From: Chrysochromulina tobinii
Lineage: Eukaryota
DNA: 35,340 bases
Assembly: GCA_001275005.1 (NCBI GenBank)
Contig: JWZX01002690.1
Location: forward strand, 1-35,340
Reading direction: 5' to 3'
A program made the position numbers and the translations under genes. The notes below the pieces were generated by a model. The model saw nothing but the letters and a program-made list of their open reading frames with translations, made no database searches and was not told the DNA's origin. This document shows positions 2,513 through 35,340 of the stretch, piece after piece; the stretch's first letter is position 1; the number at the start of each line of letters is the position of its first letter.

Positions 2513-4357
2513 ATGAAGGTCCTGATCATATGGCTCCTTTTTCCTCTGTGCCGCACCGACACGACCATTGTCCACAAGCGCCACTGCTCTTTCGAGCACC
2601 GAACCAAGGTCCGGGATTGCACGCAGAACCGCAACCGGCACGATTGTGAGGCGTCACGCATGGGCAGCACACTGGACGTATTCCAAACGTGCTGGGACTG
2701 GGGACACAGCTGCCAGCCAGCCCGACGGATCTTGGCTGCAGGGCTGGACGGCAACATGACGCGGCAACGATTGGCATGGCAGATTCGGAGTCGGCTGCAG
2801 CAGTGCCCCCAGGATGCACCTGTGCGGACCCTAGAGGCGAAGTTTGCACAGGAGGAGTGCTCGTCGTCAATGGAGCTGTGTGTCCGACGGCGCTACACAC
2901 GGCCCGCGCCGGTACAGCCAACATGGGGCAAGTATGGCTACCACGGCAAGCATTTTTCCAAATGGCTCGACGACTTTGAGCTCAGGCATCCGATGACGCC
3001 TCCGGTAGCGAAGACCAAGGGGTGGGAAGAGCCATACAAGGGGCTGACAGCAGCTCTCACTCCGGATGGGGCGGTGCTGCAAGGCGCCGAGGCCGACGAG
3101 GCGCTCTCCGCTCTGCACTTGAGTCGTCCCGTCGCCTACGGTCTCGTCATGATGTCGAGCCACCATCAAAAGGACCTGCAGTACAAGCAGTCGGCGGCGA
3201 TGCTCCGGTGGAGTGCGTCCGCCCTCGCGCACGTGAGCCAGCGGCCAGGGGGGCGTGGCCTCGGGCTGGCCGCACTGCTGCTGGTACACAACAACGCGGC
3301 CTGGAGTGAGAAGGAGCTGATCCGCATGCTGCAGTACTATGAGCTCGAAGGTCCACGCCAGATGCTCCGAATGCTCGTGCGTCCGACGGTGAACATGGGC
3401 TACCTGTGCGGTGAGCTCTCCATCCTCGCCCATGTACTCCTCTCCCATCTACTCTCATGATTCGTCCATCTACCGCACAGGTGAGCTCTCCATCCTCGCC
3501 GCAACGGCCTCGATGTGGGCGCACTTCCCTTGGGTGCTGTACAACAGTGGCCCCGACGCGGTCCTGACCCCGTACGGTGCGACCGCCTTCGCGAATTGGA
3601 TGGAGTGGGTCGAGCCCGGCTGCGCGAACACGACGGCATTCCTCGGCGGCCGCTTTCAGGTGTGATGACGACTGATTGTATGCTGATGGGCCTCCCTCAC
3701 TGCATGCTGACCGCGAACACGACGGCATTCCTCGGCGGCCGCGTTCAGACACCCGAGCGCATCATGCAGGTCGTCCCTCACTTCGCCATGGACGTCTTCT
3801 TCTTTTGGCCTGCCAAGTTCCTCGAGGCCGGCCAGAAGGCGGCTGGCCAAGCCAATAAGGCGCCCCAGCCCATGGCGAGCTCGGGCAGGCGCTCGCCGTT
3901 GATCACGCCGTGGTTGAATGCGACACGATGGTGCTTGATGGGCTGGGCTCCTGACGAGCCACGGCCCGAGTCGACGACCTATGGGCCGTTCAACAATGAG
4001 ACGGACGAGATCTTCGCCCTTCCGGAGTATCTGCTCCACGAGATGCAGTTCAGATTCGATCTCGACTACCGCATACTGCCCGGCGGGACTGGATGGGGGA
4101 TCGCAGACTCAGCCCGGGTCCCCAAACCAGGGCAGCCCGGAAAGTTCGAGAACCGGCACGCTAAGGCCATTCCGTTCCCGAAGCAGACGTGTGCCAACGG
4201 CATCTGCGATGACTGGCACGGGATCTGGCATAGCCACTTTTGGCAGTCGGTTGAGGAATGGATGCACAACCTGAACCGCACGTTTGGAGGCGACGTGCCA
4301 TGGACGCACATGTTCGATGTCGACAAGACTCATCGCACGTACGATATTGTTACCTAG
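2513..4357 (+). CDS. Secreted hypothetical protein, 3 exons (2513-3410, 3481-3659, 3749-4357; 561 aa)
   Basis: Signal-peptide-like start MKVLIIWLLFPLC. Three overlapping ORFs join into one frame after removing two GT-AG introns (spliced length 1686 nt). Confidence 0.7.
3411..3480 (+). other. GT-AG intron (70 nt) whose first 20 nt equal the first 20 nt of the next exon
   Basis: gtgagctctccatcctcgcc occurs at 3411 and 3481. The intron ends in cgcacag and its removal restores the frame. Confidence 0.8.
3660..3748 (+). other. GT-AG intron (89 nt) whose last 37 nt copy the end of the upstream exon
   Basis: cgcgaacacgacggcattcctcggcggccgc(t/g)ttcag occurs at 3623-3659 and 3712-3748. Removal gives GGRFQ|TPERIM. 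Confidence 0.8.
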
Positions 4358-9676: not shown

Positions 9677-12600
9677 CTAGACGGCGACGGCGGCCTTGCG
9701 CGCGCGCACAAACTCCTCGAACTTTGCGCACGTGGCGAGAAAGTCGCCCGCGTGCGCCTCAGTATCGGCGATCACGGCGTCCCCGTCGACAATCTTGATG
9801 CGCATGTCGAGGTCGACGCGCGTGCATGCGGGGGTGATGGCCTTGGCCGCCGCGGCGGCTTCATATGCGGCGCGCTCCTCGGCAATCAGAGCCTCGACGT
9901 CCTGCACGAGCGCCACCAGCCATCAGAAAAAATCATCATTCTCAATTGGGGATCATCAGCGGCAATGAGCGCACCTGCTCGAGGAGGGACTTGTGATGAG
10001 GGACACACTCACGTGCAAGCAGAGGCAATCAGCACACCTGCTCGAGCATCGCCACCCACGCGTCTCCGGAGAGAGGCTTGCCAGTGAGCCGCTCGACCAG
10101 CCCTAAGAAAGGTTCCGAATTCCCGGGCCTCCAGTAGGCCTCGCGCAGCGTCGGGCCGATCTTGGGGTTGTCGACGAGTGCGCCGTCGCGTTCCGACAAA
10201 AAGGCGCGCGTCTGGTGAACGGCCATCTCGGCGAGCACGTACCCGTGGTAATAGCAGCTCGCTTCGTCAGAGAGCAGGTGGGGCACTGAGAGCAGCGGCC
10301 GGCCGCCGAGCCCGCCCTGGATCTCCTTCTCTACCTTATCGGCGAGGGCGAGCACCGACTGCGCGCTCAGCACGTCCTCCGGCATCTCATACCTGATGGG
10401 AGGAGGCAATCAAAGGGCCATCAGCCGCAATCAGCGGTCCATAGAAGCACTATCTGCAAGTACAGTGCCTTCTCAAAGTAGGGCCATCAGAGGTCATCAG
10501 AGGTCATCAGAGGTCATCAGAGGTCATCAGAGGCACTATCCTGCAAGTACAGTGCCTTCTCGAAGTAGGGCCATCAGAGGTCATCAGAGGTCATCAGAGG
10601 CACTATCTGCTCGTACAGTGCCTTCTCAAAGTAGGGCCATCAGAGGTCATCAGAGGTCATCAGAGGTCATCAGAGGTCATCAGAGGCACTATCTGCTCGT
10701 ACAGTGCCTTCTCAAAGTAGGGCCATCAAAGGTCATCAGAGGTCATCAGAGGTCATCAGAGGTCATCAGAGGCACTATCTGCTCGTACAGTGCCTTCTCA
10801 AAGTAGGGCACAGCGATCATGCCGCGCAGCGTGAGCACTTCGTACGGGTGCTTGGCGCGAACGTCCTCCTCGTGCAACTCGAAGGGGAGGGGCACGCCCT
10901 CGCGGCTGACGGCGTACCTGATGAGGGACGTCATCACACATGATGAGGCAGGCCATCAGAGCTCAGTAGGATGAGGCAGGCCATCAGGGCTGATGAGGCA
11001 GGCCATCAGAGCTCAGTAGGATGAGGATGGCGTACCCGGCGAGGGACGTCATCAGAGGCAATCAGAGGCCATCCACGCACTTGCACCGCCACGCCGCGTC
11101 GCCCACGAGGGAGTCGAGGAACATGGACTGCAGCTCGGCGTATGCGACCGAGGTGGGGGCGCGCTCTTGCGAGAAGAGAGGTGAGCGCTGACGGATATTG
11201 GCAAAGTGCGCCGCGTGCCCGGCCTCGTGCATCAGGGTCGTCAGGGCGGTGTGGCCGGAGCCGATCGCCGAAGGGTCCGCAAGGGAGGTAAAGTGGGTCA
11301 CTGTGGGCTGCCACGATCCGTCCGCGCGCACCTGTGGGGAAGGAGGTGAGGCGTCGTGGTGAGCACTTGCATGCTGGCTCACTGCGGGCTGCCTCGATCC
11401 GTCAGCGCGCACCCACGCAGGCTGCGGCCAGTGGCAGAAGCCGTTGGAGTACTTGCCCTTACGATCGAGCAGGTCGAGCGACATGCTCGCGCCTTCGTAG
11501 GAAATGCCGAGCGCCGAGAAGGAGCGTCCCCACTGTTCGATGGCCTTCTCGAAGGGGAAGTACGGATCGAGCTTCTTGGTGATGTCACCTGTGGGGACAG
11601 AGAGGGGGCGCCGTGGTGAGCACTCGCTTGCTGGGCGACGCAGGGAAAAGTACGGATTGAGCTTCTTGGTGGTCACCCGCCATCATGTACGCCGAGTTCC
11701 ACGGCTCCAGCGCCATCTCGCCCTTCTCCTTCGCGAGCCGTGCGCGCGCTGCCTGCATGAGAGGGCGCGTGCCCTTCTCGAGGGTATCCAGGATTTCGAA
11801 GAGGGCCGCCTTTCCAAACCCCTCGGCCTGCGTGACCTTGTAGTCGTAGTAGTCCACGTACCCGAGGGACTTAGCCATGCGATTGCGCGCCTGGACGAGA
11901 TCGACGCACCCGCTCAGAGGCAATCAAACGCACTCAAAATCAATCAGAGGCACTCCGATGCGCGCCTTGACGAGATCGACGAACCCGTTCGCCGTTACGA
12001 AGTCGCCGATGGTGCGCACGCCATCGTAGCATGCCTTGCGTGTACCTGATGAGGAAGGCAATCAGAGGCCATCAGAGGCAATCAGATGGTGCGCACGCCA
12101 TTGTAGCATGCCTTGGTGCATACCCTCCGCGGAATCGACCCTGATGGGGAAAGGTAAGCAGAGGCAACTAGCCTTGGCGCGCACCTTCCACCGGCTCGAC
12201 CCGCATCTTGTTGCGCAGACCCACGGACGAGAGCTCGACGAAGGAGCCGTCGATGGTCGCGCCGAGTTTCATCTTGTTGCGGGCGGCCTCGAGCGTCCCC
12301 TCGATCTTCATGCACTGCTCGCGCAGCACGAGCCCTTCAGGGTTCTCCATTATGTAACAGCCGAATGTGCGCTCGAACATCTTCAGTGTCTTGCGCTCGT
12401 CGTCCGTCAGGTCCGACGAGGCGAGGTACTCGCGCGTCTGCGCGAGCTTCTCCTTGGACGCGAGGAACGCCTGTGGCGGCGAGACTCGAGCGCGGCCGAC
12501 TCGCATGAGACTCGCATGCGACGCGTGCGCGCCAGTGTGGGTGAGTCTGAGCCGTACGACCTCCATCTCAGCCTTGGTGCGCGTGAGCTCCGGGACGGAG

Positions 12601-12890
12601 TACGCTTCACCGCCGAGCGCCATCTTCGTCCCCCAGAACTGAAGCTCGAAGGACTTGTGGACCTTCTCGTACTCGGTGTTGATCGTTTCAATGAAGGTGG
12701 TCGCGGCCGACATGGCAGAGGGGCTGTAAGACGGAGAATCGAGGCGCAGCGTGAGAGAGCGCAGCAACGGACGGCTGAGTTTGCGAAAGCTGCGCCACGA
12801 TTCGAACCGTGCCGAATACCGTGCTCTCTTCGAGGACATGCTCGCTGCGGAGAGGATCGCGGGAAAGACGCTTGACGCGTACAAGCGCAT
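9677..12890 (-). CDS. M3-family zinc metallopeptidase (oligopeptidase-like), 9 exons
   Basis: HEAGH (HExxH) plus downstream AELQSMFLD, and motifs DLLDRKGKYSNGFCHW and YYHGYVLAEM. Exons: 12713 (or 12890)-12561, 12470-12185, 12045-11966, 11890-11677, 11588-11413, 11331-11081, 10917-10789, 10392-10038, 9901-9677. This gives 622 aa from ATG 12713; the upstream ATG at 12890 would add 59 aa, possibly a targeting peptide. Confidence 0.88.
9902..10037 (-). other. M3 peptidase intron 8 (136 nt) with an internal CAG|GT junction at 9975/9974
   Basis: CTCGAGCAG|GTGTGC at 10037, a second CTCGAGCAG|GTGCGC at 9974, and acceptor GTGCAG|GAC at 9902. Confidence 0.75.
10393..10788 (-). repeat. M3 peptidase intron 7 (396 nt): array of exon-end/donor copies interleaved with (CATCAGAGGT)n
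   Basis: On the + strand, the unit gcactatctgc(tc/aa)gtacagtgccttctcaaagtagggc occurs 5 times, separated by 5, 3, 5 and 5 copies of the 10-mer. Splicing CT|GTACGA...ATCAG|G gives EKALYEMPED. Confidence 0.85.
10918..11080 (-). other. M3 peptidase intron 6 (163 nt), built of CTGATGGCC/CCTCATC repeats
   Basis: AA|GTGCGT...CCTCATCAG|GTAC. Splicing gives DAAWRCKYAVSR. Confidence 0.75.
11332..11412 (-). other. M3 peptidase intron 5 (81 nt, in frame): ~38-nt copy of the next exon plus acceptor cassette
   Basis: The ORF shows duplicated peptide VRADGSRQPAVS...VRADGSWQPTVT. Boundaries are TGG|GTGCGC and CCCCACAG|GTG. Confidence 0.8.
11589..11676 (-). other. M3 peptidase intron 4 (88 nt): ~33-nt copy of the next exon plus acceptor cassette
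   Basis: The intron starts GTGACCACCAAGAAGCTCAATCCGTACTT and the exon starts GTGACATCACCAAGAAGCTCGATCCGTACTT. The intron ends CCCCACAG. Confidence 0.8.
11891..11965 (-). other. M3 peptidase intron 3 (75 nt), GC-AG, flanked by duplicated exon sequence
   Basis: GTCGATCTCGTCAAG|GCGCGCA ... GTCGATCTCGTCCAG|GCGCGCA. The intron contains an in-frame stop, and splicing gives GFVDLVKARNRMAK. Confidence 0.7.
12046..12184 (-). other. M3 peptidase intron 2 (139 nt), compound
   Basis: GAAG|GTGCGC...CCTCATCAG|GTACAC. It contains an internal acceptor-like site (12141), a donor-like site (12123) and a copy of the next exon. Confidence 0.75.
12471..12560 (-). other. M3 peptidase intron 1 (90 nt, in frame), no obvious exon duplication
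   Basis: GAG|GTCGTA...CCACAG|GCG. Splicing gives KAEMEAFLASK. Confidence 0.6.
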
Positions 12891-13256
12891 CGATCGCGCG
12901 ATTCGTCGAGGTTCGTCAAAGTTTTTTTCAAGCGTCGATGCGCGAGTGCGCCCTCGACCCCGACTCTGGGCTACGCTTGCTTTCGCCTTCGATGCCCTGG
13001 AAACCGGCCAACGCTCAGTCACATAGCCACATCGCCACGATAGCCCCACACATCATGGCACACACCGCGGCTGCCCGCCTTCACATGCCCTGAATGAGAA
13101 TCGCTCGCCCTTGCAAGCTCGCCCGTGAATACGCGCTCCATAAGGGCGCTCCATAAGGTGCGAGACGGCCAGCACGTACCAGCACACAACCACCGTCCCC
13201 TCACATCTCTGATTCTGCGCCTTCCCCTCCCACGTTCGGCACGCGCCGCGACCTCC

Positions 13257-15398
13257 TCAGGCAGTGCCGAGCGTCGTGCCGAGCGGCACGCCCCCGTAGC
13301 TCGTCTGGCGAGGGCTCGAGGGTGCGAGGTACTCGGCAAACGCCGAGCCGCCGGTCGAATCCGCACCCGCCGCGCCGATGCGGGCTCGGTCCGCTGACGG
13401 AAGGCTCTCGGCAAGGGCGAGTCCCGCACGGGAACGGAGCGATGCGAGCGCTGCGCCCGGCACGTACATCTTGGCCGTCGCCTCGGCGTCCGCGCCGTGG
13501 GTGGTGTTGTCAAAGTTGAGCCGCGTGGCCACGGGTGGTTTCGTCTCGTGTTTCGTCAATGTGGCGGCGGCGGCGGTGGCGGCCGCCGGTGTCGCGCCCG
13601 CACTGTCCGCAGCCTCGGTGGATGAGCCTGTGGGAGTGTTCACCTTGGCGCCGGTGGGCGTGAGAGAGCTCATGTACGAGGACGGTGGCGGCGGCGGCAG
13701 CGACGAGTGCGAGGCGACAGCGGCGGCGACGGCGGCGGCGGAGGAGGAGCTCGACGATAGAGAGGAAGAGGAGGACGAGGAGGTGGACGAGGTGTAGGGC
13801 GAGGTGTAGGACGAGGGCACAGGCAGCTTAGACGGAGGCGAGCTGGTCGCGCCACCCATGCCCGCCATCGGAGCCCTGGACGGGAGCATCGGGCGGAAGC
13901 TAGGCGGGCGGGCGTGTAATGATCCGAGCAAGGGGCGCCCGCCCGCCTGCGCCTCATTGAGCTCGTGGTTGAGGAACTGGATGACTTCCTGATTGGAGCG
14001 CAGGAGGGTATGCGCCTCTGTGAGCTGCGCCTTGCATGCGCTCGTGCGCTCCTCGGCGCGGTCCTTGTCCGCACGCAGCTCGGCCGCGGCCGCGCGAAGC
14101 TCAGCCATCGCCTTGGTCGCCACGTCGAGCTCCGTCTGCTTGGCGGCGCAAAGCTCACCCTGCTGCAGAAGCTGCTGCGCCTTGAGCTTCAGCTTGGCCT
14201 TTAGCTCGCGCGAGTCACCCTGGAGCTTGGCGATGATGCTATTCCCCTTGGTGATCTCCTGCGCCGAGAGCCGCAACTGCTCTTGCAGCCGCGAGTGACC
14301 CTCCTTGTACATCGCGAGGGAATCCTCAAGTTGCCTCTTGGACTCGGCCGCAGCCTCACGAGCACAGCCCATCTGAGCGAGGAGCGTCTCCTTGTCGGAG
14401 GCGGCCTGGCTCGCCGCGGCGAGCTCGACGTCGCGCGCGCTCAGCGCCTTCTCGAGCGCGTGCACCCGCGCGCTCAGCCGCGCATTCTCCTCGCGCAGCC
14501 CCGTCGCCTCCTGACGAAGCAGCCCCACCTCCTGCTCCGCCCCCTGAAGCCTGCTCGCCGTCTCGCGTTGGCGCAGCGAGAGCTCGTGCGTGCTGCTCGT
14601 GAGCTCGCCCACGCGCGCGCGCGCCTCGGCCTCCGAGCGGCGCAGCTCGCGGAGCTCCGCCTCGCTCCGATCGAGAAGCCTCTGCCGTGCCTCCTCCGAC
14701 GCCGACGCCTGCTCCTGCTGCGCCGCCACGGCCGCCTCCCTGCTGGCGTTGAGCAGCCCTGCGTGCCGCACGTCACGCTCGTGCAGCTCGCGCGCGTGCT
14801 CGTCGCCGATGTTGCGAAGCTGCTCGGCCTGCGAGGCCGCGCGCTCCGCCGTCGCCTGCAGCTGCGCCGTACGCTCGCGCAGCTCTTCGCTCGTTGTGAG
14901 CAGCTGCGCCTTGTACTCAGTCACGCGGCCCGCGAGATAGCGCTTGATGGCCGCGTCATTGCCAGCGACGAAGCGCAGTGCGAGGTGCGCAAGCTGCCGG
15001 AATGGGTTCGTCTCGGTGATCGTCAGCATCGGCTGGCCACTCTGCGTCGAGAGCACCGCGACAAAGCGCGGGTGGTCCTCAGCGGCGCTGCTCTGGCACT
15101 GGCGCAGCAGCTCGATCACCTTGGAGGGGAAGGTGAGAAAGTCGACGAGGATATTCTGCTCCGTCTTGAGTGAGTGGAAGTCATCCTCCGAGATCTCGAG
15201 CGTGTACAGCAGGAAGGCATCGCTCTCATCCGTTAGCTGCACCCGCAGCACTTTTTGGTTGCGAGGCTGCCCGGTGCTGTGCGTGATCGCGACCGTGAGC
15301 GAGCTCGAGCGGTCCTCGCGGTCGGCGCTCTTTAGGATGACCGGGACTGCCCCGTGGAAGATGTCCTCGTGCTCCTGCCACTCGCAGGTTGCGGGCAT
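13257..15398 (-). CDS. SAS6: Spindle assembly abnormal protein 6 (centriole/basal body cartwheel protein)
   Basis: Head-domain motifs LRVQLTDESDAFLLYTLEISEDDFHSLKTEQNILVDF..FP and ETNPFRQLAHLAL, followed by a long coiled coil and a Ser/Pro-rich tail. First ATG is at 15398. Confidence 0.92.
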   Translation of the reverse strand: MPATCEWQEHEDIFHGAVPVILKSADREDRSSSLTVAITHSTGQPRNQKVLRVQLTDESDAFLLYTLEISEDDFHSLKTEQNILVDFLTFPSKVIELLRQCQSSAAEDHPRFVAVLSTQSGQPMLTITETNPFRQLAHLALRFVAGNDAAIKRYLAGRVTEYKAQLLTTSEELRERTAQLQATAERAASQAEQLRNIGDEHARELHERDVRHAGLLNASREAAVAAQQEQASASEEARQRLLDRSEAELRELRRSEAEARARVGELTSSTHELSLRQRETASRLQGAEQEVGLLRQEATGLREENARLSARVHALEKALSARDVELAAASQAASDKETLLAQMGCAREAAAESKRQLEDSLAMYKEGHSRLQEQLRLSAQEITKGNSIIAKLQGDSRELKAKLKLKAQQLLQQGELCAAKQTELDVATKAMAELRAAAAELRADKDRAEERTSACKAQLTEAHTLLRSNQEVIQFLNHELNEAQAGGRPLLGSLHARPPSFRPMLPSRAPMAGMGGATSSPPSKLPVPSSYTSPYTSSTSSSSSSSLSSSSSSAAAVAAAVASHSSLPPPPPSSYMSSLTPTGAKVNTPTGSSTEAADSAGATPAAATAAAATLTKHETKPPVATRLNFDNTTHGADAEATAKMYVPGAALASLRSRAGLALAESLPSADRARIGAAGADSTGGSAFAEYLAPSSPRQTSYGGVPLGTTLGTA

Positions 15399-15458
15399 TG
15401 TCGCGGCGAGCGCGCGTCGCTTTCGCGCGCCTTTCCTTCCCCTATGCAAGAGTTATGC

Positions 15459-15487
15459 AAGTCAAGTCAAGTCAGTCAAGTCGAGTC
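15459..15487. repeat. Degenerate (AAGTC)n microsatellite just upstream of SAS6
   Basis: aagtcaagtcaagtcagtcaagtcgagtc read directly. Confidence 0.75.
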
Positions 15488-15676
15488 CCCTTACACACTC
15501 GAGAGGGCGGTGTGAACTTTTTCTTTTCTTTTCTAAATAGATTCTCAGAAGCTTTTCGCCCCCGCCGGCACACCATTGCACCATGCCATCAGCAGACATG
15601 TACCGGGTACAGTAGATGTCAGTTTTACTTGGTCGTCGAAGGATTTCGTGCAGGTGGACCTACAAAGTGCATTGAT

Positions 15677-16717
15677 CTAGTCCTTTTCAAACTCAATGCG
15701 AAAGAACTTCACTGTGATGAAGTTGGACAGCCTGCCGATGGCGTTGCCAAAGAGGGGGATGCCAGTTAACAAGTAAACGGATACAAAGAGCAGCTCGGCA
15801 TCGTCTACTGAGCCCGGCGGAGTTTGGCCACACGAGGAGATCGAAAAAAATGCAAAGTATAACGCGTCCACCCAGTTCCATTGATTGTACAGGATCTCGA
15901 AGAGGGTTCCCAACAAGAGAATGAAGAATACCACGAGGAATGGCGCCACGACGTCGTACAGGAACCTGAGTGCCTGCTTGAAGCTTGATTCGTCTGAGTC
16001 CAGCGCCTTCGTGGAGAGCTCCTTAGCCACCTGCAAACATGAGATGCTTGGCGACGGGGTAAGAGCGCAACGGGCGAATCGCAAACGTGTAGCATGCATC
16101 AGCGCGCGTTCGCGGCACAGTGACAAAGGTACCTCTGTCGCCTTGTTGCTCAAGCGCGCCATGAAGATAGCGAGGGCCGAAGTGATGAACAAGATCATCA
16201 CAAGGCCGTGGAGAATCGTAAAAAGCTTCCACAACTCGTTGCGCTCTGTGAATAAGCCATAGCCGACATGGAAGCCCATGAGCACAGAATAGAACAAGCC
16301 GGCCGCCCAAGTTGGCTCCTTGCACGCCGCCGGGTTGCGAAAGTTCGTGAGCGCACCGGGTGGTTGCGGACAAAAGTCGGCAAGAGCAAAGTACTTGTAG
16401 ATGGATGTCGTGATGAAGAGCCAAGCGACGAAGGCCGCGAGCCAGATTCGCCAAGCCAAGTCTTGGCGTCGCTGGCGCTCGCGCTCAACCACGTGTCGCA
16501 GACCCACGCGAAGCGGAGATTTATACGGGGCTGGAGGCATGTGGGGGGCAACAAGTGGTGTGCTCTCTGTCGGCGGCAATGTTGCTCCTGACCATGTGGC
16601 GACCGGAGCTGCAGGTGCCTCCGCCTGCAAGGCAGCTGCTGTAACGGCTTCTGGAATGAGAGCGGGAGCCTCCATATCCAGAGGAGCTGATGCCACGGCT
16701 GATGCTGAGGCCTGCAT
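15677..16717 (-). CDS. Two-pore-domain (4TM/2P) potassium-channel-like protein; probable in-frame intron at 16132-16031
   Basis: TM-P-TM pattern occurs twice, with pore helices GLFYSVLMGFHVGYG and WNWVDALYFAFFSISSCG and the motif YLLTGIPLFG. The intron is GAG|GTACCT...TTGCAG|GTG (102 nt). Confidence 0.75.
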   Translation of the reverse strand: MQASASAVASAPLDMEAPALIPEAVTAAALQAEAPAAPVATWSGATLPPTESTPLVAPHMPPAPYKSPLRVGLRHVVERERQRRQDLAWRIWLAAFVAWLFITTSIYKYFALADFCPQPPGALTNFRNPAACKEPTWAAGLFYSVLMGFHVGYGLFTERNELWKLFTILHGLVMILFITSALAIFMARLSNKATEVPLSLCRERALMHATRLRFARCALTPSPSISCLQVAKELSTKALDSDESSFKQALRFLYDVVAPFLVVFFILLLGTLFEILYNQWNWVDALYFAFFSISSCGQTPPGSVDDAELLFVSVYLLTGIPLFGNAIGRLSNFITVKFFRIEFEKD

Positions 16718-17267
16718 GTCCTTCCCCAGGGCAGCCCCCGCGCACCACGTGCTCCTGGGTGCCCGTGGATGCGCGAGCGCAGCGCAAGGCTAAATTAGGG
16801 AAGTGGTGTCGGTTTCTGGTTTCGGGGTTGGGTTGTGTACGTGCCTTTGCGATGTTACAACTGTGCGGAGTAAACTGTAATTAGTGTTGTAATCCGTTTT
16901 TTCATTTTCTGCTTGCGCGCCGGCGCGGGGGCCGAGATGGCGGGACGGACGGAGCCGACTCCAGCGCGCACAGCGGGACGCCGCGAGGAACCATCGTCGA
17001 ACTCCATCGTCGGCCTTTGATGGCGACCCCGGGCTTGCCGCGGGCTATTGAGTGCCCAGCCTCTGCGGGCCTCTGGGCCCTCGGACAGCACGGTCACGCT
17101 GTTCGTTTTTACACCGTCCGAACACGCTGGGTCGCTGTCCCACCTTAAAAGCTCTCGAAATGACCGATCAGCCGGCAGCGCGGTTCCACATAACCGAACC
17201 GACATTCGATGTGCCTCTCGGCTACCTTCGGCAGCCACAGCCCTACGACGGGCGCCTGGCGCATGTG

Positions 17268-17373
17268 CTGGGAGCATGGCGGCCGCCGCACTCACGGGCG
17301 CCCCACTGCCCACGACGGCGCTCACGGGCGCTCCACTGCCCACGACGGCGCCACTGGGAGCATGGCGGCCGCC
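17268..17373. repeat. Two 30-bp tandem units bracketed by a 20-bp direct repeat
   Basis: ctcacgggcgc(c/t)ccactgcccacgacggcg occurs twice (17291-17350). ctgggagcatggcggccgcc occurs at 17268 and 17354. Confidence 0.75.
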
Positions 17374-17492
17374 ACCGCCAGGTGATGGTAGTGCACGGGA
17401 GGGCGTGCCACGCCCGCCCACGCGCATAGTAACTGGTGCATGCTGGCCCCCTCGGCCGCGTCCTCGGGGGGCGGAGGTGAGACCTCCCCGCT

Positions 17493-18962
17493 TCACATCT
17501 TGAGTGCAATGTTCATGTATGCGTACGTGGTGACCAGCACGCCGGCGACGCCGAGCCATGAGTGCAATGTGGTGGCGACGCCGAAAAAGTTGGCCGAGAC
17601 GATGACGAGGACGGCCATCACGGCTGAGTTGGCAAAGTTCTTGACGATCGCATCGGCGTACTTGTACACGAGTGTAACGGCGAGCCCGTGGAAAGCTTGG
17701 AAGAGCACGAGCAGGAGCGCGAGGGGCGTGTAGCCCTCAAAGAAGCCGACGTGGACCGCGCCAGGCCGGGGCGGCATGACCAGGTACGAGAAGATTGCGA
17801 TCGAGAAGCCGAAGACGTACAGGATCGTGTTCTGCAGATGAACCGTCACGTCAAAGTTCTTCACGACCTGTTGATTCCACACCGACGAGACGGCTGTGAT
17901 GACGGTCGCCACCGCCACGACCACATACCCGTGCGTAGGCACCATGCCGCGCGCCTTGCATGCATCGTACTGCGACACGGCGATGCAAATGCACTGGAGC
18001 AGCACGCACACCCATTGCAGCTCGTTGAGGCGCTGTCCGAGCACGCGCAGCATCAGCGCGACTATGTACGGCGCGAGCGACTTGGCGAGTGTGAACGTGC
18101 CTGGGTCGACCAGCTGCGCGCGAGAAGAGGCCGAGGGTGGGGGTGAGTTGGAAGTGGAGGCTGAGGGTGGGAGTTAGAGAGCTCATGTGGCGGGGCAGTA
18201 GCAGCTCATGTGGCAGGGCACTGTGACTCGAGAGAGTCGCCACACGTGTCGCACCTCGAGCGCATAGAACGTGAGCTGGTTGTTGATGGTGTACAGCACT
18301 GCCAGGAAGAAGTAGTGCGCGCAGATTCGCGGAGTCACGCCCTTAAATGGATCTACGCCGGTCGCCTTCACATGGCGCGAATGCAGCGTGACGGCGAGCG
18401 CGAGCTTGCAGGCCTCCGTCATCGCGACGCACGAGGCGGGCGAGAAGGAGTACGAACCCGACGTCTGGCAAAGCTTGAAAAGCAAGATTGCCACTGACTG
18501 GACACAGACGAGCACCACAAACGAGCCGATCTGCGTGCCGTACGACGACATGCTGCCCCAGTACGACGACACGCCGCCGATGCAGCATTGGAGCACGACG
18601 CAAAGGCAGCACACGATCAGGGCACCTACTGCGAGCATGGGGAAGTAGCTGCCGCTGCTGCTCTCTGGGGGTGGCGACAACAGCTCCGGCGGTGGCGGCG
18701 ATTGCTTTGTGTGTTTTTGTACTCCGTGCTCCTTGTGCTCCTTTTTGACAGTGCTCGCTGGCGACCCCGCACCCTCGTCCACCTTTTTGGCTAATCGCTC
18801 CACCTTTTTGGCAGCACTCTCGGGCGTATCTTGCAGAGATCTTGCAGCGGCCTTTGCAGCGGCCTTGTTGGTGGATGTGTTGGCGATGTCACTCGGCGGC
18901 ACCGGCCGTGTCTGGGCAAACGCCGTGAGGCAGATGAGCAGGAACAGATGCAAGGTACGCAT
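17493..18962 (-). CDS. Nucleotide-sugar transporter (SLC35A-like), 2 exons (18962-18255, 18113-17493; 442 aa)
   Basis: Motifs MTEACKLAL, AVLYTINNQLTF, DPGTFTL, LQW, HLQNTILY.FG and GLAVTLVYKYADAIVKNFA. The 141-nt intron GAG|GTGCGA...CGCAG|CTG restores the frame. Confidence 0.88.
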
Positions 18963-19105
18963 ACCTTCCTGTCAATCAATGCGCCGTCTCGGCCGGGGGA
19001 GCCTGCGCGGCTCTTCGGCTTCGCGGCGCACTGCTCGACGCGGCCGAACGTTTGGGCTGTGAATAATTCTGATGCGTGACTGTGAAAACTATTCGGGGCG
19101 TTTCA

Positions 19106-19129
19106 ACAAGCAAGCAAGCAAGCAAGCAA
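19106..19129. repeat. (CAAG)n microsatellite upstream of the transporter gene
   Basis: caagcaagcaagcaagcaagcaag read directly. The complementary gcttgcttg occurs at about 19178 and about 25787. Confidence 0.8.
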
Positions 19130-19457
19130 GGTACTCGGTTGCGCTGGTTTAGGTACCTGTGTGTGTCGACTAACTAGCTTGCTTGCGTTTCAACAGGGTG
19201 GGGGGGGCACTTTACATGTATCTCTGCACACTGCTAATAAGTCGAAACAACACAAGTATCTTGCTTGCTCTCTGGGTCTGGCTCTCGAGCGCTCTCCGTC
19301 GTTACTCGTTGGTAGATTCGTTTCGGCGCTCGTTTAGTCTCATCAGACATCTCGCAGCCCAACGACCCCAACTTAACCCCAACTCGCAACTGCTTGGGCC
19401 ACCCAGGCCCTGCAAAGAGAACATGCGCTCACATGCGCATGCCGAATATCCTGGCAG

Positions 19458-20940
19458 TTACCACAGAGCCGGAGCATTGTCCCGCACCACGGCGAGCGGC
19501 GCGACAGCTGCGCCGGCGACGCCCCCCTGGACGACCCCATTCGCCTGAGAGCTCTCTTCGCCAGAGAGCGCATACTCGAGCTCTATGCGCCAAGCGGCAG
19601 GGAAGCGCGCGTCCTTGTGGGCACCGTCCACGTCCTCCTTGTACAGCGCGCCGCCATAAGGGAGCGGCTTGAGCATGCGTGCCAGGAAGCCAGTGTGCAG
19701 CGTCGCCCAGCCCAGCCTCTCCTCCGTCAGAAGGCCATTATTACTCAGGCGCAGCTCAAAGTCTCCGCGGAGGAGCAACCCGTCGCCAGGCAGCTCGAAG
19801 CGCACGGCCGGCTGGAAGGGCGCGCAGCGCACGGGGCCGCACGTGCAGATGGACGAGCGCAGCGTCTGGATGCCATCCGCGGTGGGAGACGCCGTCGTGA
19901 GCGCGAGCAGCTCCAATCTCAGATACCTGTGGGGAGAGAGGCGATGGCGCCGTGGTGAGCACTTGCATGCACCGACGGATCCAATCTCAGATACCATGGA
20001 TTGAGATCCAATCTCAAATCAGATTGAGATCCAATCTCAGATACCATGGATTGAGCAGCGAGTCGGCGTCCGCGCGCGGCGCGCCACTTGAGGCGAAGTA
20101 GGCGCCCGGCGCCGAGGAGAGTGTGACCGCCTTGAGCACGACCGTGGCGCCCTCGAGCAGCTGCGCGCGCCTCTCGACCCCCTCGCAGCGCAGCAACTGC
20201 TCGTACATGCGCACGCAACGCACTTGTGATGGCTGGTTGATGGCGTCGAGGTCCGTCGTGCGTGCGCTGCGGAAGAAGTGGATGGCTGCGTCGGCCGACG
20301 GGCACTCGGCGTGCCCGATGCGGAGCAGGAACGCGCACACCATCACCCCTGTGCGCCCCTTGCCAGCCTTGCAATGCACGGCTAGCACATTCGCCTGGTC
20401 ACCCTCCATGAACGCGTACGCACGATCGCAAAAGGCATCGAGCGCGCGCAGCGCGGGTGCGTGGTGATCGGCGAACGGGTAGCGCATGACGCGCACTGCA
20501 CCCGGCCAATCGGTGTCCAGGTAATCGCGCTCGTCGCACAAGTTCACCATCGCGTAGCGGCCGCCGTGTTGGCCATCCATGAAAGACCGCACATCCGAGA
20601 GCGGGTTGCGATACCACGACTCGAATGAGCTGCTCGGCAGCCCCAGCGCGATGACGCGCGGCACAATGTACGTCAGGTCGAGGTCGAAGGTGTCCGTCTG
20701 CGTGCGCCTCTTGGAGCCGGATACCAAGTGCCGCGCGACTCGGAATGGCACATCGGTGACGCCGGAGGCAACTGCGGTGAGGCTCTGCGTCCACGTGGCA
20801 TCCTTGTTGGAGCCCCTCGTCTCGAGTGCCTCGACCTCGAGTGACTCGATGCGTCGCTGCATCGGTTTAATCGGTGCGGCCGCGGCTGCAGCGCTGATTG
20901 GGATAAAAGAGACCGCAGCGCCGTCCTTGTGCTCCGCCAT
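19458..20940 (-). CDS. PTEN: PTEN-like phosphoinositide phosphatase with C2 domain, 2 exons (20940-20045, 19926-19458; 454 aa)
   Basis: Catalytic HCKAGKGRTG, plus LVS..KRR...FDLDLTYI.PRVIA.G.P, YRNP, FADHHAP and PSQ.R motifs. C-terminal C2-like region GDF...LHTGF...KEDVD.AHKD.RF. Confidence 0.9.
19927..20044 (-). other. PTEN intron (118 nt): patchwork copies of the exon junction plus acceptor cassette
   Basis: TG|GTATCTGAGATTGGA...CCCCACAG|GTATCTGAGATTGGA. Splicing gives LLNPWYLRLELL. Confidence 0.8.
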
Positions 20941-29746: not shown

Positions 29747-32700
29747 CTATCTCAGTGCGCGCGTGATCGAGAGCGCAATGAACACGGCCCACAGCACCAC
29801 GAAGAAGAGAGCGCTCAGCCACCTGGAGACCGGCGGACCGCCCAGTTCGGCGCCGAGCAGACGGCGGCGCGCAATGAGTGTGCCGAAGCACAGGCTTGCC
29901 ACGGCCAAGAAGATCTGAATTGAGTAAGCGAGGTCACCCGCGGGCACCACGAAGCTGACGGCCATCTGGGGCGTGTACCACGGCTCAGAGGAGTACCTGT
30001 CGCGCCACTCGGCCTCATGCTCCAGGCCATAGGAGGCCCAGTAGATGGCGGCGATCATCCAGGGCAGCCCGAGGCCGAGGTAGATGATGACGCTATTCGA
30101 GCCAGTGATGTTGGTAATGCACGCGTCCGCGGTAGGCTCGGTGGCGGCGGCGATGCGCGACGCAAAAGTGTCGGGCAGCGAGGAACCCATCGCGACAAAG
30201 GTCATGGCTGTCACCGATTTCGAGATGCCCAAGCAGCAGCCCATGTGGCTAGCGAGGTCGCCGACGAGCGCCGTGAGCAATCCAATGAGCACGAGCGTCA
30301 CGAGGAAGCACGACCAGCCACCTGACCACTCGGGCGGCGGCACAATGGCGCAGATGAGCTTCCAGGGCAGCGACAACAGCCACATCGCCATGGATCCCGG
30401 CCCAACTTCCGAGGGCAGCTGCACCGCCTCCTGGAACTGGCCTAGGTACGAGCCATCGCCGTGCTCGTGCTTCGCCTTGGGCTGCGGCGAGCTAAAGTCG
30501 AGCAACTGCACAAGCTCGTCCACGCGCGCGACACGCTCCGAGTCGGAATGGACGTGCACGACGGAGAAGATGGATGCTCGGCGCAGGCGCATGTTGCCGT
30601 CGGTGACGAACCGCGTCGCCTTCTCGCCCTTCTGCCCTGCGGCCGACGTGAGCACCACCTGGAAGTCATCGAAGCGGTGGTATGCACCTGTGTCTATGAG
30701 CTCCACCTCAATTGTCTTCGACACGACGCCTTCCTCAAAGACCATTCGGCCCGATCTGCCGACATAACCCTGGCCCGCGATCGAGGTGCCGTCGCGCGTC
30801 GCCCATTGGCATGCAATCGTCCCTTCACAGCCATGCGTGCGCAGCACTGATAACGTCACGCGCTGCGCTGTCTCACAGACATCGACCTCGCGTGAGTCTA
30901 AGTGTAACTCGCCCGGCCCGTCGTGGTCTTGAATGGTGACGTCGCACGTGGTCGTGGCGCCCAGACGGCAATGCTTCGGACAGAAGAGCTCGACGAAAAA
31001 GTGCTCATCGTTCTCCTCATCGTCGTCGTCGATGATCTTGACGCTGATCGTCTGGTGCGTGACGCCCGGTGCGAACACGATGAGGCCTTCAGCCTGAACA
31101 CAGTCGAGCTCAGCGCAACGCTCAGAAATAGGGGGCACTCAAAGAAACCACTCAGGGACGCACATCAGCAGAGAGAGACGCGCTGAGGGACGCTCCCAGA
31201 GACCAGGGAGGCATTCAAGGACGCACTCCGAAGAGCACTTAGGGACCATCAGTGGCCGTCGGCGCACATGCTCGAAGTCGACTCCGTCGGTGGCGGTGCC
31301 GCTCTTGGTACAGTACTCGACTGAGCATGCTCTGGACTTGTCGCCGTTGCGTACGATCGCGAGTGTCACGCTCCCTTGCCCCTCTCGGCAGACGCGCTTC
31401 GCCTGCGCCCACTGCACGCGGGTCTCGCCGCGCGCGTCCTCAACCGCGTTGCCCTCCCGCTCGAGGATGGTTGCGCGCAGAAGGCCAGCTTCGTCAAGCG
31501 CCTTGTTGCCGAGAGCGGCGTTCATCCCAGCCTTTCGGTAGTAGGCTTGCGACTGCGGCGGCAGCAGCATCGAGGCGACGGCGGCGAGCTGCTCGTCGCC
31601 CGAGAGCGTTTCGATGGACTTGAGTGCAAGCACGCGCGAGATGTCAGTCTTTGTGATCTGGCGCCCATCCTTGCCGTAGCCGATGGCCGCGGCCGCCTCA
31701 GCACTCTCAGCGTCATGAGCGGCGAAGACGGACGCCTCGGCGTCGGCCACATCTGCACGGTATGCCACGTACACGAGGAGGGGGAACATGACGAACGTGG
31801 TGACACCCTCCCACACATCGATGACATCGGGCGTGATGTACTCGAGTATGATGATGAGCCACACGTATCCAAAGATCGAGGCGACCCCGGTAATGTAGAA
31901 GACTGGAAGTGCCTTGATGGCGGTCTGGCCGCCGTCTGGGATGGCCGTGATGCACACAGCCGAGATGATGAGCATGTTGAAGGCAGCCGAGCCCACGATC
32001 GTCGACGGGCCGAGCTCGCCCGCGTAGAAGCCCGAGCTCACAATCTCGATGATCGAGAGCAGGATCTCCGGCGCGGAGGAGCCGAGCGCCATCAGCGTGA
32101 GGTTGGCGACCGTCCCATTCCACACGGTGACCGTATACCTTCGCACCTCGCCTGAGGGCAGCTCGATCGTCCTCGTCGTCTCCGTGGACGTGATTTGCTC
32201 GATGCCGGCCATGAAAACGTCCGCCGCGATCGCAATGCCCAGAAAGGTCCAGCAGAGCAGAGCCATGAAGAGGAGCGTGTTGCGCCCTGTGCGCGCGGGC
32301 CCATACAGTATCCAGCCGTCGGAGCAGTGCTCACCGCCGAGCTCCGGGTCCACGCGCGGATCGTTGAACCACTCTTCAAGGCTGTCGAATGCCGGCTCGA
32401 CGGCGCCCATGTCGAAGATTCCGATCTCGTTGGCGAGCGCGCCCAGCAGCAGCCCGAGCAGCAGCAGCAGCAGGCCGCAGCACGCGGAGGGAAAGATCGT
32501 GATCGTGGCCATCGGGGGCGTCTCCGGCCCCGACGGCGTCCCATCCGCACTCTCGCTCTTGAGCGCAGCGGCGGTAGGTGCCGCCTTGACGGACGGCGCC
32601 ACCTTGGCGGTCGGCGCCGCCTTGGCTGGCGACGATGGCTTCGATAGCGGAGGCATGGCCGCCGCCGTCGTGGCCGGCTGCATCGCCTTTGAAGAAGTGC

Positions 32701-32935
32701 CCGACGGCGCGCTGCAGGCCGTGGTCATGTACCGTGCGTATGGTGACTGCGTATCGCGTTCACAAGCGCCCTGGGTGGCAGCATGGGGCACGTTGGCACC
32801 AGCAGCCCATGATCCGGATTCAGTGCGCTGCTTATCGAGGAGCAAATCCTCGTCATCGGGGGTGATCGGGCTTCTTGACGGCTGCTGATGCGAAGCGGAG
32901 CTGCCCGACGTCCGCGTAGATCCCCAGCGCAGCAT
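29747..32935 (-). CDS. NCX: Na+/Ca2+ exchanger (SLC8/NCX family) copy A, 2 exons (32935-31268, 31093-29747; 1004 aa)
   Basis: Alpha-1 repeat VWNGTVANLTLMALGSSAPEILLS..GPSTIVGSAAFN, two Calx-beta domains, and alpha-2 repeat GSSLPDTFAS..GSN. The 174-nt intron CAT|GTGCGC...TTCAG|GCT restores the frame. Confidence 0.92.
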
Positions 32936-35340
32936 CAGAAAGATCGCGCGCCGATTGGCGGCCGCGAGTGATCTGACCACGCGACCGTCATATGGGGCGT
33001 ACGCCAAAAATTACCTGCCAAAAATTACCCCACTTCCAAAATGAAATAGTGATTGAAATCTCATCTCCGTGCCATGAATTCTGGGTACGAACTGTAATTT
33101 AGAGAATAATTGCCAGAGGCGCCGATTTTTTTTGATCTTGCCACTCACCGCTCCCAGGCACGCGCAGTACACATGTACCGGATAGCATGGAAAGGTGCAT
33201 ACATGTATGGCCCCCGGGGACAAGTAGGTGGACTCTCTGACAGTGCCTGTAGACCTAAAACTGTCTCCCCGTCTTCGGCCCGCTGTGACATTGTTATAGT
33301 GACATTGTTCATTGTTATAGTGTTTGCTGCGCTGAGTCTGGTGCCTCTGTGCGCTCTGCGCTGCGCCCGCTGCGTGAGTGCACGTGGAGTTCTTTACTAC
33401 GTGGAGTAGCGAAAAACGAAGTAAAATCGAAATTTGTCACACGATTATGGCCTCGAAATTTCGAAGATCTAGAGTCACCCCGAATGAGGGTCCTAGTCGG
33501 GTCTCAACTTCGTCCAAAAAAGGTGGCTACTTTTTTTGGCGGCATCATCAAGAGGTCTCCAACATGACGGAGTGTGTCCAAGCGCACTCGCGGTTGCCAA
33601 TCGGTGCGCGATCTTTCTGATGCTGCGCTGGGGATCTACGCGGACGTCGGGCGGCTCCGCTTCGCATCAGCAGCCGTCAAGAAGCCCGATCATCCCCGAT
33701 GACGAGGCGTTACTCCTAGATAAGCAGCGCACTGAATCCGGATCATGGGCTGCTGGCGCCAACGTGCCCCACGCTGCCACCCAGGGCGTTTGTGAACGCG
33801 ATACGCAGTCACCGTACGCACGGGACATGGCCACGGCCTGCAGCGCGCCGCCGGGCACTTCTTCAAAGGCGATGCAGCCGGCCACGACGGCGGCGGCCAT
33901 GCCTCCGCTATCCAAGCCATCGTCGCCAGCCAATGCGGCGTCGACCGCCAAGGTGGCGCCGTCCGTGAAGGCGGCACCGTCCGTCAAGGCGGCGCCGTTG
34001 GGGCCGGAGACGCCCCCGATGGTCACGATTCCCTGCCGCCTGCTGCTGCTGCTGCTGCTGCTCGGGGTGCTGCTCGGGCTGCTGCTGGGCGCGCTCGCCA
34101 ACGAGATCGGAATCTTTGACCTGGGCGCCGTCGAGCCGGCATTCGACAGCCTTGAAGAGTGGTTCAACGATCCGCGCGTGGACCCGGAGCTCCGCGGTGA
34201 GCACTGCTCCGACGGCTGGATACTGTATGGGCCCACACCCACAGGGCGCAACGCGCTCCTCTTCATGGCTCTGCTCTGCTGGACCTTTCTGGGCATTGCG
34301 ATCGCGGCGCACGTTTTCATGGCCGGCATCGAGCAAATCACGTCCACGGAGACGACGGTCACGATCGAGCTGCCCTCAGGCGAGGTGCGAAGGTATACGG
34401 TCCACGTGTGGAACCGGACGGTCGCCAACATCACGCTGATGGCGCTCGGCTCCTCCTCGCCGGAGATCCTACTCTCGATTTTTGAAATTGTGGGCTCGGG
34501 CTTCTACGTGGGCGAGCTCGGCCCGTCGGCGGTCGTGGGCTCGGCTGCCTTCAACATGCTCATCATCTCGGCTGTGTGCATCACGGCCATCCCTGACGGC
34601 GGCCAGACCGCCATCAAGGCACTTCCAGTCTTCTACATTACCTTTTTCGCCTCGATCTTTGGATACGTGTGGCTCATCATCATACTCGAGTACATCACGC
34701 CCGATGTCATCGATGTGTGGGAGGGTGTCACCACGTTCGTCATGTTCCCCCTCCTCGTGTACGTGGCATACCGTGCAGATGTGGCCGACGCCGAGGCGTC
34801 CGTCTTCGCCGCTCATGACGCTGAGAGTGCTGAGGCGGCCGCGGCCATCGGCTACGGCAAGGATGGGCGCCAGATCACAAAGACTGACATATCGCGCGTG
34901 CTTGCACTCAAGTCCATCGAAACGCTCTCGGGCGACGAGCAGCTCGCCGCCGTCGCCTCGATGCTGCTGCCGCCGCAGTCGCAAGCCTACTTCGTAAAGG
35001 CTGGGATGAAAGCCGCTCTCGGCAACAAGGCGCTTGACGAAGCTGGCCTTCTGCGCGCAACCATCCTCGAGCGGGAGGGCAGCGCGTTGGAGGATGCGCG
35101 CGGCGAGACCCGCGTGCAGTGGGTGCAGGCGAAGCGCGTCCGCCGAAAGGGCCAAGGGAGCGTGACGCTCGCGATCGTACGCAACGGCGACAAGTCCAGA
35201 GCATGCTCAGTCGAGTACTGTACCAAGAGCGGCACCGCCGCCGACGGGGTCAACTTCGAGCATGTGCGCCGACGGCCACTGATGGTCCCTAAGTGCTCTT
35301 CGGAGTGCGTCCTTGAATGCCTCCCTGGTCTCTGGGAGCG
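31191..35340. repeat. Large inverted duplication: arms ~31191-32991 and ~33564-35340, AT-richer spacer of ~570 bp
   Basis: Reverse-complement alignment by eye. Homology begins at ATGACGG on both sides and continues to the window end. Confidence 0.9.
33620..35340 (+). CDS. NCX: Na+/Ca2+ exchanger copy B, partial (exon 33620-35263; intron from 35264 runs off the window)
   Basis: Inverted near-identical copy of copy A, with an open frame from ATG 33620 (MLRWGSTRTSG...) to FEH|gtgcgc. It is missing from the ORF track because no stop occurs before the window end. Confidence 0.85.
   Translation, partial: MLRWGSTRTSGGSASHQQPSRSPIIPDDEALLLDKQRTESGSWAAGANVPHAATQGVCERDTQSPYARDMATACSAPPGTSSKAMQPATTAAAMPPLSKPSSPANAASTAKVAPSVKAAPSVKAAPLGPETPPMVTIPCRLLLLLLLLGVLLGLLLGALANEIGIFDLGAVEPAFDSLEEWFNDPRVDPELRGEHCSDGWILYGPTPTGRNALLFMALLCWTFLGIAIAAHVFMAGIEQITSTETTVTIELPSGEVRRYTVHVWNRTVANITLMALGSSSPEILLSIFEIVGSGFYVGELGPSAVVGSAAFNMLIISAVCITAIPDGGQTAIKALPVFYITFFASIFGYVWLIIILEYITPDVIDVWEGVTTFVMFPLLVYVAYRADVADAEASVFAAHDAESAEAAAAIGYGKDGRQITKTDISRVLALKSIETLSGDEQLAAVASMLLPPQSQAYFVKAGMKAALGNKALDEAGLLRATILEREGSALEDARGETRVQWVQAKRVRRKGQGSVTLAIVRNGDKSRACSVEYCTKSGTAADGVNFEHVRRRPLMVPKCSSECVLECLPGLWE

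Follow-up and report, generated by a model that had tools for sequence, protein, structure and literature searches.

Three introns ending in a shared cassette

The DNA analysed here is a 35,340-nucleotide (nt) stretch of contig JWZX01002690.1 (hereafter the window), and two genes on its minus strand carry introns that end in related 3' splice-site cassettes. Gene A (9677–12713, minus strand) matches peptidase M3 (PF01432, oligoendopeptidase-like), with a spliced model that was verified to 11080 and a 3' part that was read by eye only. Gene B (19458–20940, minus strand) encodes a PTEN-like phosphatase with a C2 domain, as indicated by DSPc-type and PTEN_C2 matches. GC content is ~62%; a homologue cluster at 59% identity includes a Chrysochromulina rotalis protein, and an Emiliania homologue is 62% identical, values that make a prymnesiophyte haptophyte the likely host. 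A preliminary description had placed cassettes at minus-strand positions 11374–11332, 11631–11589 and 19970–19927, at the 3' ends of three introns in these unrelated genes and between exon copies that start with GT. All three strings are present at these positions, and RNA contigs (sets X1 and X5) splice out all three introns exactly.

The 81-nt phase-0 intron (11412–11332) and the 88-nt phase-1 intron (11676–11589) of gene A are skipped by contigs of both X1 and X5, and the 118-nt phase-2 intron of gene B (20044–19927) is skipped by contigs of X5 only. Each intron has GT..CAG ends, and the 5' part of each is a copy of the downstream exon, as had been proposed. For example, positions 11412–11375 of the 81-nt intron copy the first 38 nt of the next exon (11331–11294) at 34 of 38 positions and provide the GT donor, and the remainder (11374–11332) is the cassette, comprising a 25-nt core with a predicted branch point (judged from a CTCAC motif), a pyrimidine tract and CAG. 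The 88-nt intron consists of an exon copy of ~37 nt (gapped alignment), a short linker and its cassette. The intron of gene B starts with a 15-nt exon copy (15 of 15 identical) and carries such copies at 20044–20030 and 19994–19980, apparently through a later local tandem duplication, followed by a 9-nt linker and its cassette. Splicing yields a stop-free stretch of 387 amino acids for gene A that is 89% identical to protein P0001 without gaps, and a PTEN-like frame of 454 amino acids for gene B, whose unspliced frame stops at residue 308.

RNA contigs define nine introns between positions 11000 and 20950, of which three combine a core with an exon duplicate, two combine exon copies with a CTGAT-type module, and four have neither. 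The two CTGAT-type introns both lie in gene A (minus strand) and are joined in X1 and X5. The first is a 139-nt intron (12184–12046) that ends in a second, CTGAT-repeat acceptor module and has exon copies inside, and the other is a 75-nt GC-AG intron (11965–11891) with a CTGAT-type spacer, which takes both of its splice sites from duplicated exon sequence. Further along gene A, introns 10391–10780 and 10899–11078 (minus strand) contain repeated exon-end copies and arrays of a 10-nt CTGAT-type unit, and the X1 and X5 contigs diverge from the reference at 11079, beside the latter intron.

A family of cores and the introns that contain them

A scan with a degenerate 21-nt core pattern returned one locus from a viral collection, at least 130 metagenome loci and one bacterial match (loci carry labels such as L001). 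All family counts rest on the window and these scanned loci (0.86 Mb), which were chosen for holding the core seed, and totals are lower bounds. At least 327 core matches with two or fewer mismatches fall into 280 distinct contexts, and the 261 of these with at least 200 nt upstream and at least 100 nt downstream form the analysis set; excluding, in addition, 19 loci that overlap, are orthologous or represent chance matches brings this to 255 copies. The bacterial genome match (L132, the single match among genome contigs) was dropped as a chance match without the upstream bases and tail, and L060, which resembles it, stayed within the 261 copies. Three base-shuffles of the 860 kb of loci yielded no matches to the 21-nt seed at three or fewer mismatches and one at four, compared with 406 real matches at four or fewer mismatches in these seed-selected loci, so the recurrence of the core is not due to chance.

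Core density is 16 in 168 kb at distances of more than 3 kb from the anchors and three in 35 kb in the window, or roughly 90 copies per Mb of sampled DNA. Scaled to the 59-Mb C. tobin genome, whose published account mentions introns once (PMC4580454), this extrapolates to ~5,000 copies, a figure that inherits the bias of the chosen loci and a borrowed genome size. A protein search with the core translation gave nine matches. Summed sequencing depth is high over cassette bins, a measure that was not used as a copy number. The locus filed among viral contigs (L001) contains an entire cassette between duplicated flanks and probably comes from the host.

Across the 261 copies, core positions are 84–100% conserved, the bases just upstream are 30–57% conserved, and the tail is pyrimidine-rich and variable. 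The preliminary description had treated ~43 nt as the shared cassette. Its 25-nt core is indeed conserved, yet the three window cores are not identical (22, 24 and 23 of 25 positions in pairwise comparisons), their tails are unlike, and the conserved unit is the 25-nt core rather than 43 nt. The gene B core (19970–19946, minus strand) consists of the family's commonest bases. Hexamer palindromes lie at both core ends, and the 5' edge is sharp, with conservation falling from 95% to 48%. The core almost always stops at the same 3' position (275 of 292), and some copies are truncated at the 5' end. Folding revealed no family structure and no terminal stem beyond those of shuffled sequences (z from -0.02 to -2.3).

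A pyrimidine tract and a YAG end follow the core in 196 of the 261 copies, mostly with 12–22 nt between core end and acceptor, and the next bases are GT in 158 and GC in 19 (177/196). An upstream duplicate that starts at the first exon base (score of at least 10) is present in 129 of these 196 copies, in comparison with 6 of 980 swapped and 4 of 189 offset controls; once overlapping or orthologous loci are removed, the count is 126 of 192. The many copies, regular spacing and flanking exon duplications expected from the preliminary description are thus present. Duplicates are 11–54 nt long (median 26 nt), and a few represent whole-unit tandem copies. In 103 simple cases the duplicates are 95.6% identical, 43 of them perfectly so, and duplicate length trades off against linker length (rho -0.62, n=103). 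Implied introns measure 63–94 nt in 123 of 129 cases, with lengths distributed across the three frames as 43, 50 and 36. A G precedes the duplicate in 106 of 129 cases, the exon copies of the target sequences already resemble donors, and the acceptor junction shares one base or none in 70 of 129.

Four further cassette introns, in locus L010, are spliced in RNA contigs (81, 71, 133 and 79 nt), bringing the RNA-verified total to seven; a fifth intron predicted in L010 is absent among the 15 RNA joints listed. One of the four, L010:5470–5548, interrupts a DEAH-type helicase gene (Helicase_C match) within the Walker A motif, and its linker is shared with an intron ~250 nt downstream. Acceptors accompany 180 of 270 full cores and 8 of 104 short 3' core fragments, some of the short matches being chance, and the first 10 bases of the core may aid splicing. 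All three sense frames of the core are free of stops, so gene annotation is affected.

A codon model called 103 of 109 decided acceptor copies as sense, a proportion close to the error rate of the model, which was wrong for 4 of 59 decided calls in cross-validation, is weak for single sites and mis-called copies L077:2652 and L010:7041. Strand also agrees with that of the nearest second-class acceptor in 81 of 85 acceptor copies.

Other copies, other modules and the sources of inserts

The expectation that cassettes would be sense-oriented holds for acceptor-bearing copies and does not extend to the family as a whole. The acceptor tail is missing from 65 of the 261 copies, some of which are in frame or antisense, and 46 of the 65 nevertheless lie between direct repeats (13 of 195 in controls). 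In 14 of these repeat-flanked copies the repeat begins exactly at the core end. Some are local tandem copies within introns, and some supply only a branch signal between duplicated AG|GT sites. Others lie in frame within exons, where 8 of 13 periods are divisible by three. For example, L077:2652 sits within a filamin-repeat frame of 1179 amino acids and is sense according to Pfam, and L010:7041 (69 nt) is in frame and antisense in the helicase gene, whose strand is set by RNA joints, and has an 11-base linker in common with the sense introns of that gene. Six L023 copies in two clusters are also antisense to the acceptors of their gene. For the non-acceptor copies, the codon model tallied 25 sense, 10 antisense, 4 in conflict and 26 undecided, a tally that was not used as a rate. 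At L077:2652, L006:10001–10828 and L023:15235–15355, cores or half-cores in frame in open reading frames add low-complexity peptide repeats. At L071:1–60, a fold-back junction in the 5' hexamer palindrome connects an antisense core with an incomplete sense core.

Two further classes show related arrangements. In a mirror type, the insert contributes a donor arm, and it is the end of the preceding exon that is duplicated (12 of 25, compared with 5 of 125 controls). The CTGAT-repeat acceptor, a second module unrelated to the core, has the same geometry (76 of 143, compared with 37 of 429 controls). Short tandem repeats are found in Emiliania introns. Among 249 spacer-duplications, in loci chosen for the core, the core fills 90 and second-class modules fill 53. 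Further spacer modules lie between duplicated exon pieces at L069:11203, L023:11733 and L001:1369–1450 and in tails of L012, L104 and L111, and some of these resemble telomeric CCCTAA units. Insertions of telomerase RNA at breaks are known.

A probable intron gain is seen at one pair of orthologous loci. L073 and L008 differ by 29 mismatches in 1504 aligned bases (L043 and L068 are also orthologous), and in L073 an 81-nt insert is accompanied by a perfect duplicate of 33 nt. The insert is absent from L008 and from L037, an orthologue in a second assembly; both have the joined, empty form over 113 of 113 bases. The linker, core and tail of the insert copy an intron ~510 nt downstream in the same stretch. 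Because the junction matches are only 2–4 bases, which is too short for an assembly chimera, we infer that the difference is not such an artefact. No joined form was found in DNA runs X15–X17 at the introns listed, so these runs contribute no further empty site. A second parent-daughter pair lies in L043, where the copy at 12535 holds bases that are exon-derived at 10001, a distance of 2.5 kb, and the join falls on five matching bases. These shared exon-derived bases set the direction, with 10001 as parent and 12535 as daughter.

Sharing of linkers or tails also points to local sources. With orthologues removed, 30 of 241 same-strand pairs less than 3 kb apart share a linker or tail, in comparison with 304 of 31896 pairs between loci. 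Numbers are small for a comparison across genes, with 3 of 28 opposite-strand pairs within 3 kb, two of them from one gene. Microhomology of at least three bases is present at the core-end junction in 4 of 10 non-tandem cases (null 2.8%, p ~1e-4). The preliminary description had suggested looking for a longer master copy or a source non-coding RNA (ncRNA), neither of which emerged. The longest shared piece in the 0.86 Mb sampled is a 30-nt donor arm, and Rfam searches gave matches below threshold only, none near the gathering score (L007, L021 and L069).

Origin of the cassette introns

These findings suggest that each cassette intron combines a duplicate of host exon sequence with a copied branch-point module, brought together by microhomology-guided copying of an existing intron, often from the same gene, during repair of staggered breaks. 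We assign this interpretation a probability of roughly 50%. It extends the earlier proposal that an acceptor cassette, copied from a template, makes an intron out of a duplicated G|GT, a proposal supported by the empty orthologous site among other evidence. Partial inserts with variable ends, both orientations, long and variable duplicates, microhomology and local parents all fit templated repair of staggered breaks. The phenomenon is real and widespread and probably still active, and the template is more likely to be DNA than RNA.

Under this interpretation, offset nicks or a template switch would duplicate 11–54 nt of the target, and synthesis would then make a detour along a copy already present, switching in and out at 2–5 matching bases as suggested by the two parent-daughter pairs, and take with it the parent's core, its tail and a few bases beside them. 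Where the copy is sense, has a YAG end and stands beside a duplicate with GT or GC, the spliceosome removes duplicate and insert exactly, as the seven RNA-verified introns demonstrate. Other products in exons would survive only in frame, and selection, rather than a machine coupled to splicing, would create the sense bias and the sharp ends at splice sites. Each survivor would serve as a new template, and the module would amplify without transposon ends. There is about an even chance that the result is an intron factory in the full sense, self-amplifying without a transposase, ongoing, polymorphic among strains, and able to make thousands of exactly spliced introns within and between genes by means of host break repair.

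Several observations weigh against break repair as the source. There is a single empty site, and deletion between direct repeats could equally have produced it; neither a de novo event nor a repair enzyme was seen. The 30 pairs that share linkers or tails come from 11 loci, mostly L061 and L039, and are not independent. Linkage between linker and tail is absent over all copies (1502 of 2000 permutations reached the observed value), and the linkage seen in 24 pairs (0 of 2000 permutations) followed a post hoc exclusion of donor-arm copies, made before orthologues were recognised. Duplicate and core divergence, compared as a test of age, are uncorrelated (rho 0.03, n=103), and no contig among those listed covers the antisense copy L010:7041. 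Repair of a generic kind would be expected to use whatever DNA lies close by, but 90 of the 249 spacers hold the core, and an enzyme specific to the element or a plentiful RNA template may be needed. The core's fixed 3' end and 5' truncations are as in retroposition.

This last resemblance leads to the alternative of an RNA template, in which a reverse transcriptase of long interspersed element (LINE) or Penelope type would prime at a nick, with the pre-mRNA of the gene itself or a released intron as its template. Copying would start at the 3' side, be cut short at the 5' side and leave a variable target-site duplication, giving the same products under the same selection. Linear group II introns are likewise known to retrohome. 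We consider such a route possible but rather unlikely. The core ends just noted agree with it, as do the strong same-gene sourcing, the fact that intron modules make up most inserts (the core in 90 and second-class modules in 53 of 249) and the termination of the longest 5' arm at a donor site, and non-long-terminal-repeat (non-LTR) insertions are known to make long, variable duplications (PMC9977147). However, the inserts have no poly(A) or simple-repeat tail, three loci gave no ncRNA match at Rfam thresholds, and 3' junctions occur at the core end, in the tail or, in the mirror type, inside the core. Moreover, among nine linkers with a downstream match, none had copied the next exon across the intron. 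A role for a Replitron-like HUH transposase or another enzyme, with the core as a tiny non-autonomous element, is improbable. In Replitron-1 of Chlamydomonas, one end is fixed at a dinucleotide target, the other is fuzzy and taken from sequence beside the parent, and duplications are variable; Chrysochromulina tobinii is reported to have one putative Replitron locus (PMC10288648). The palindromic hexamers at both core ends and the sharp 5' edge are also in keeping with an element of this kind. Yet the core has neither terminal direct repeats nor a stable hairpin, both of its ends vary, and the second, unrelated module has identical geometry.

Two further explanations receive very little credence. 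Old introns might have been remodelled by local tandem duplication of an acceptor and exon start, with loss of the original 5' half and no gain at all, a scenario for which the frequency of whole-unit tandem duplications speaks. It is nevertheless difficult to reconcile with an orthologous empty site that lacks any intron, with parental bases in daughters at other positions, and with in-frame and antisense copies away from any intron. Reverse splicing, in which the spliceosome would reinsert excised introns and which has been proposed for introner-like elements of fungi, seems just as implausible. GT or GC does follow 177 of the 196 acceptor copies, targets are donor-like and acceptor copies are sense, but this route predicts whole, seamless and sense-only insertions, whereas the inserts here are partial, are accompanied by duplicates of 11–54 nt and include antisense and acceptor-less copies.

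The cassette had been termed introner-like or mini-SINE-like (after short interspersed elements, SINEs). In its workings it resembles an introner, yet it falls outside the published definition, and the mini-SINE label is unsupported. In common with introners, many related introns occupy unrelated genes (196 acceptor-type copies, seven of them RNA-verified, where at least four related introns are called for), splicing is exact, one splice site comes from a target-site duplication, and an orthologue at one site lacks the intron. However, the introner survey (Gozashti et al., bioRxiv 10.1101/2022.06.06.494994; PMC9860276) requires similarity near both intron ends, whereas the cassette shares part of the intron only. 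The other half is the 11–54-nt host-exon duplicate, a shared donor arm is confined to a minority, and copying is often local. The supplement of that survey lists 653 introners in Emiliania huxleyi, 827 in Chrysochromulina sp. and 230 in Prymnesium sp., and the example it gives from Chrysochromulina shows a 4-bp duplication and an element that carries the 5' site. Published haptophyte families may overlap the donor-arm type, from which they are set apart here by the survey's description rather than by consensus sequences.

Other mobile elements differ in more respects. The cassette lacks the terminal inverted repeats and the short duplication of fixed length that typify introners derived from miniature inverted-repeat transposable elements. 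Fungal introner-like elements insert seamlessly (PMC8469720), unlike the partial inserts, long duplicates and antisense copies described above. SINE, LINE and Penelope-like insertions (PMC9977147) share variable-length target-site duplications and 5' truncation, but the cassette has no A-run or fixed-end tail, its 3' junction varies, and no ncRNA-derived head (three loci searched) or master copy (0.86 Mb sampled) was found. The L043 and L073 pairs (n=2) show the fixed end, parent-derived fuzzy end and variable duplication of Replitron-1 (PMC10288648), whereas Replitrons are ~0.9–3.6 kb long with terminal direct repeats and a transposase, and the cassette is 25–75 nt long with no defined termini and no short terminal direct repeats in its base profile.

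Intron gains by tandem duplication and break repair (reviewed in PMC3443670) also share features with the cassette introns. In tandem genomic duplication, duplicated exon sequence likewise gives a splice site with no change to the mRNA, and a subset such as intron 11965–11891 takes both sites from duplicated AG|GT. The main class instead obtains its acceptor and branch signal from a separate copied module, so short duplicates can reach a spliceable 63–94 nt. Break-repair introns of the Daphnia type resemble the cassette introns in having an insert between direct repeats, here above background, with junction microhomology and nearby donors, but the filler here is a recurring, self-templating splice module with hundreds of copies, and the repeats are long. 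Patch-type duplications have been described (PMC7407515), and direct repeats averaging 11.4 bp occur near intron borders in general (PMC11782384). Haptophytes are not mentioned in the main text of a later preprint (10.1101/2024.06.04.597373). The literature searched, which left most subscription papers outside its reach, holds no description of this element or geometry. We conclude that the cassette introns are a new variant of known intron gain, one that joins exon duplication to the copying of a splice module.

The origin of new spliceosomal introns is a long-standing question, and mass gains have so far been ascribed to transposon-like introners, with break-repair and tandem-duplication gains known as scattered cases. 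Similarity searches that require both intron ends, as in introner pipelines, would skip gains of the kind described here. Each young intron records its own birth in its duplicate length, its junction matches and sometimes its parent, and the organism is present in culture-derived data, which makes the mechanism directly testable.

Elsewhere in the window, a plus-strand gene has two more likely introns (~3410–3490 and 3620–3735) with exon duplicates and CTGAT-like spacers. A sodium/calcium exchanger gene (31170–32940, minus strand; Pfam match) has an apparent close inverted partial copy at ~33660–35340 (plus strand), as read by eye.

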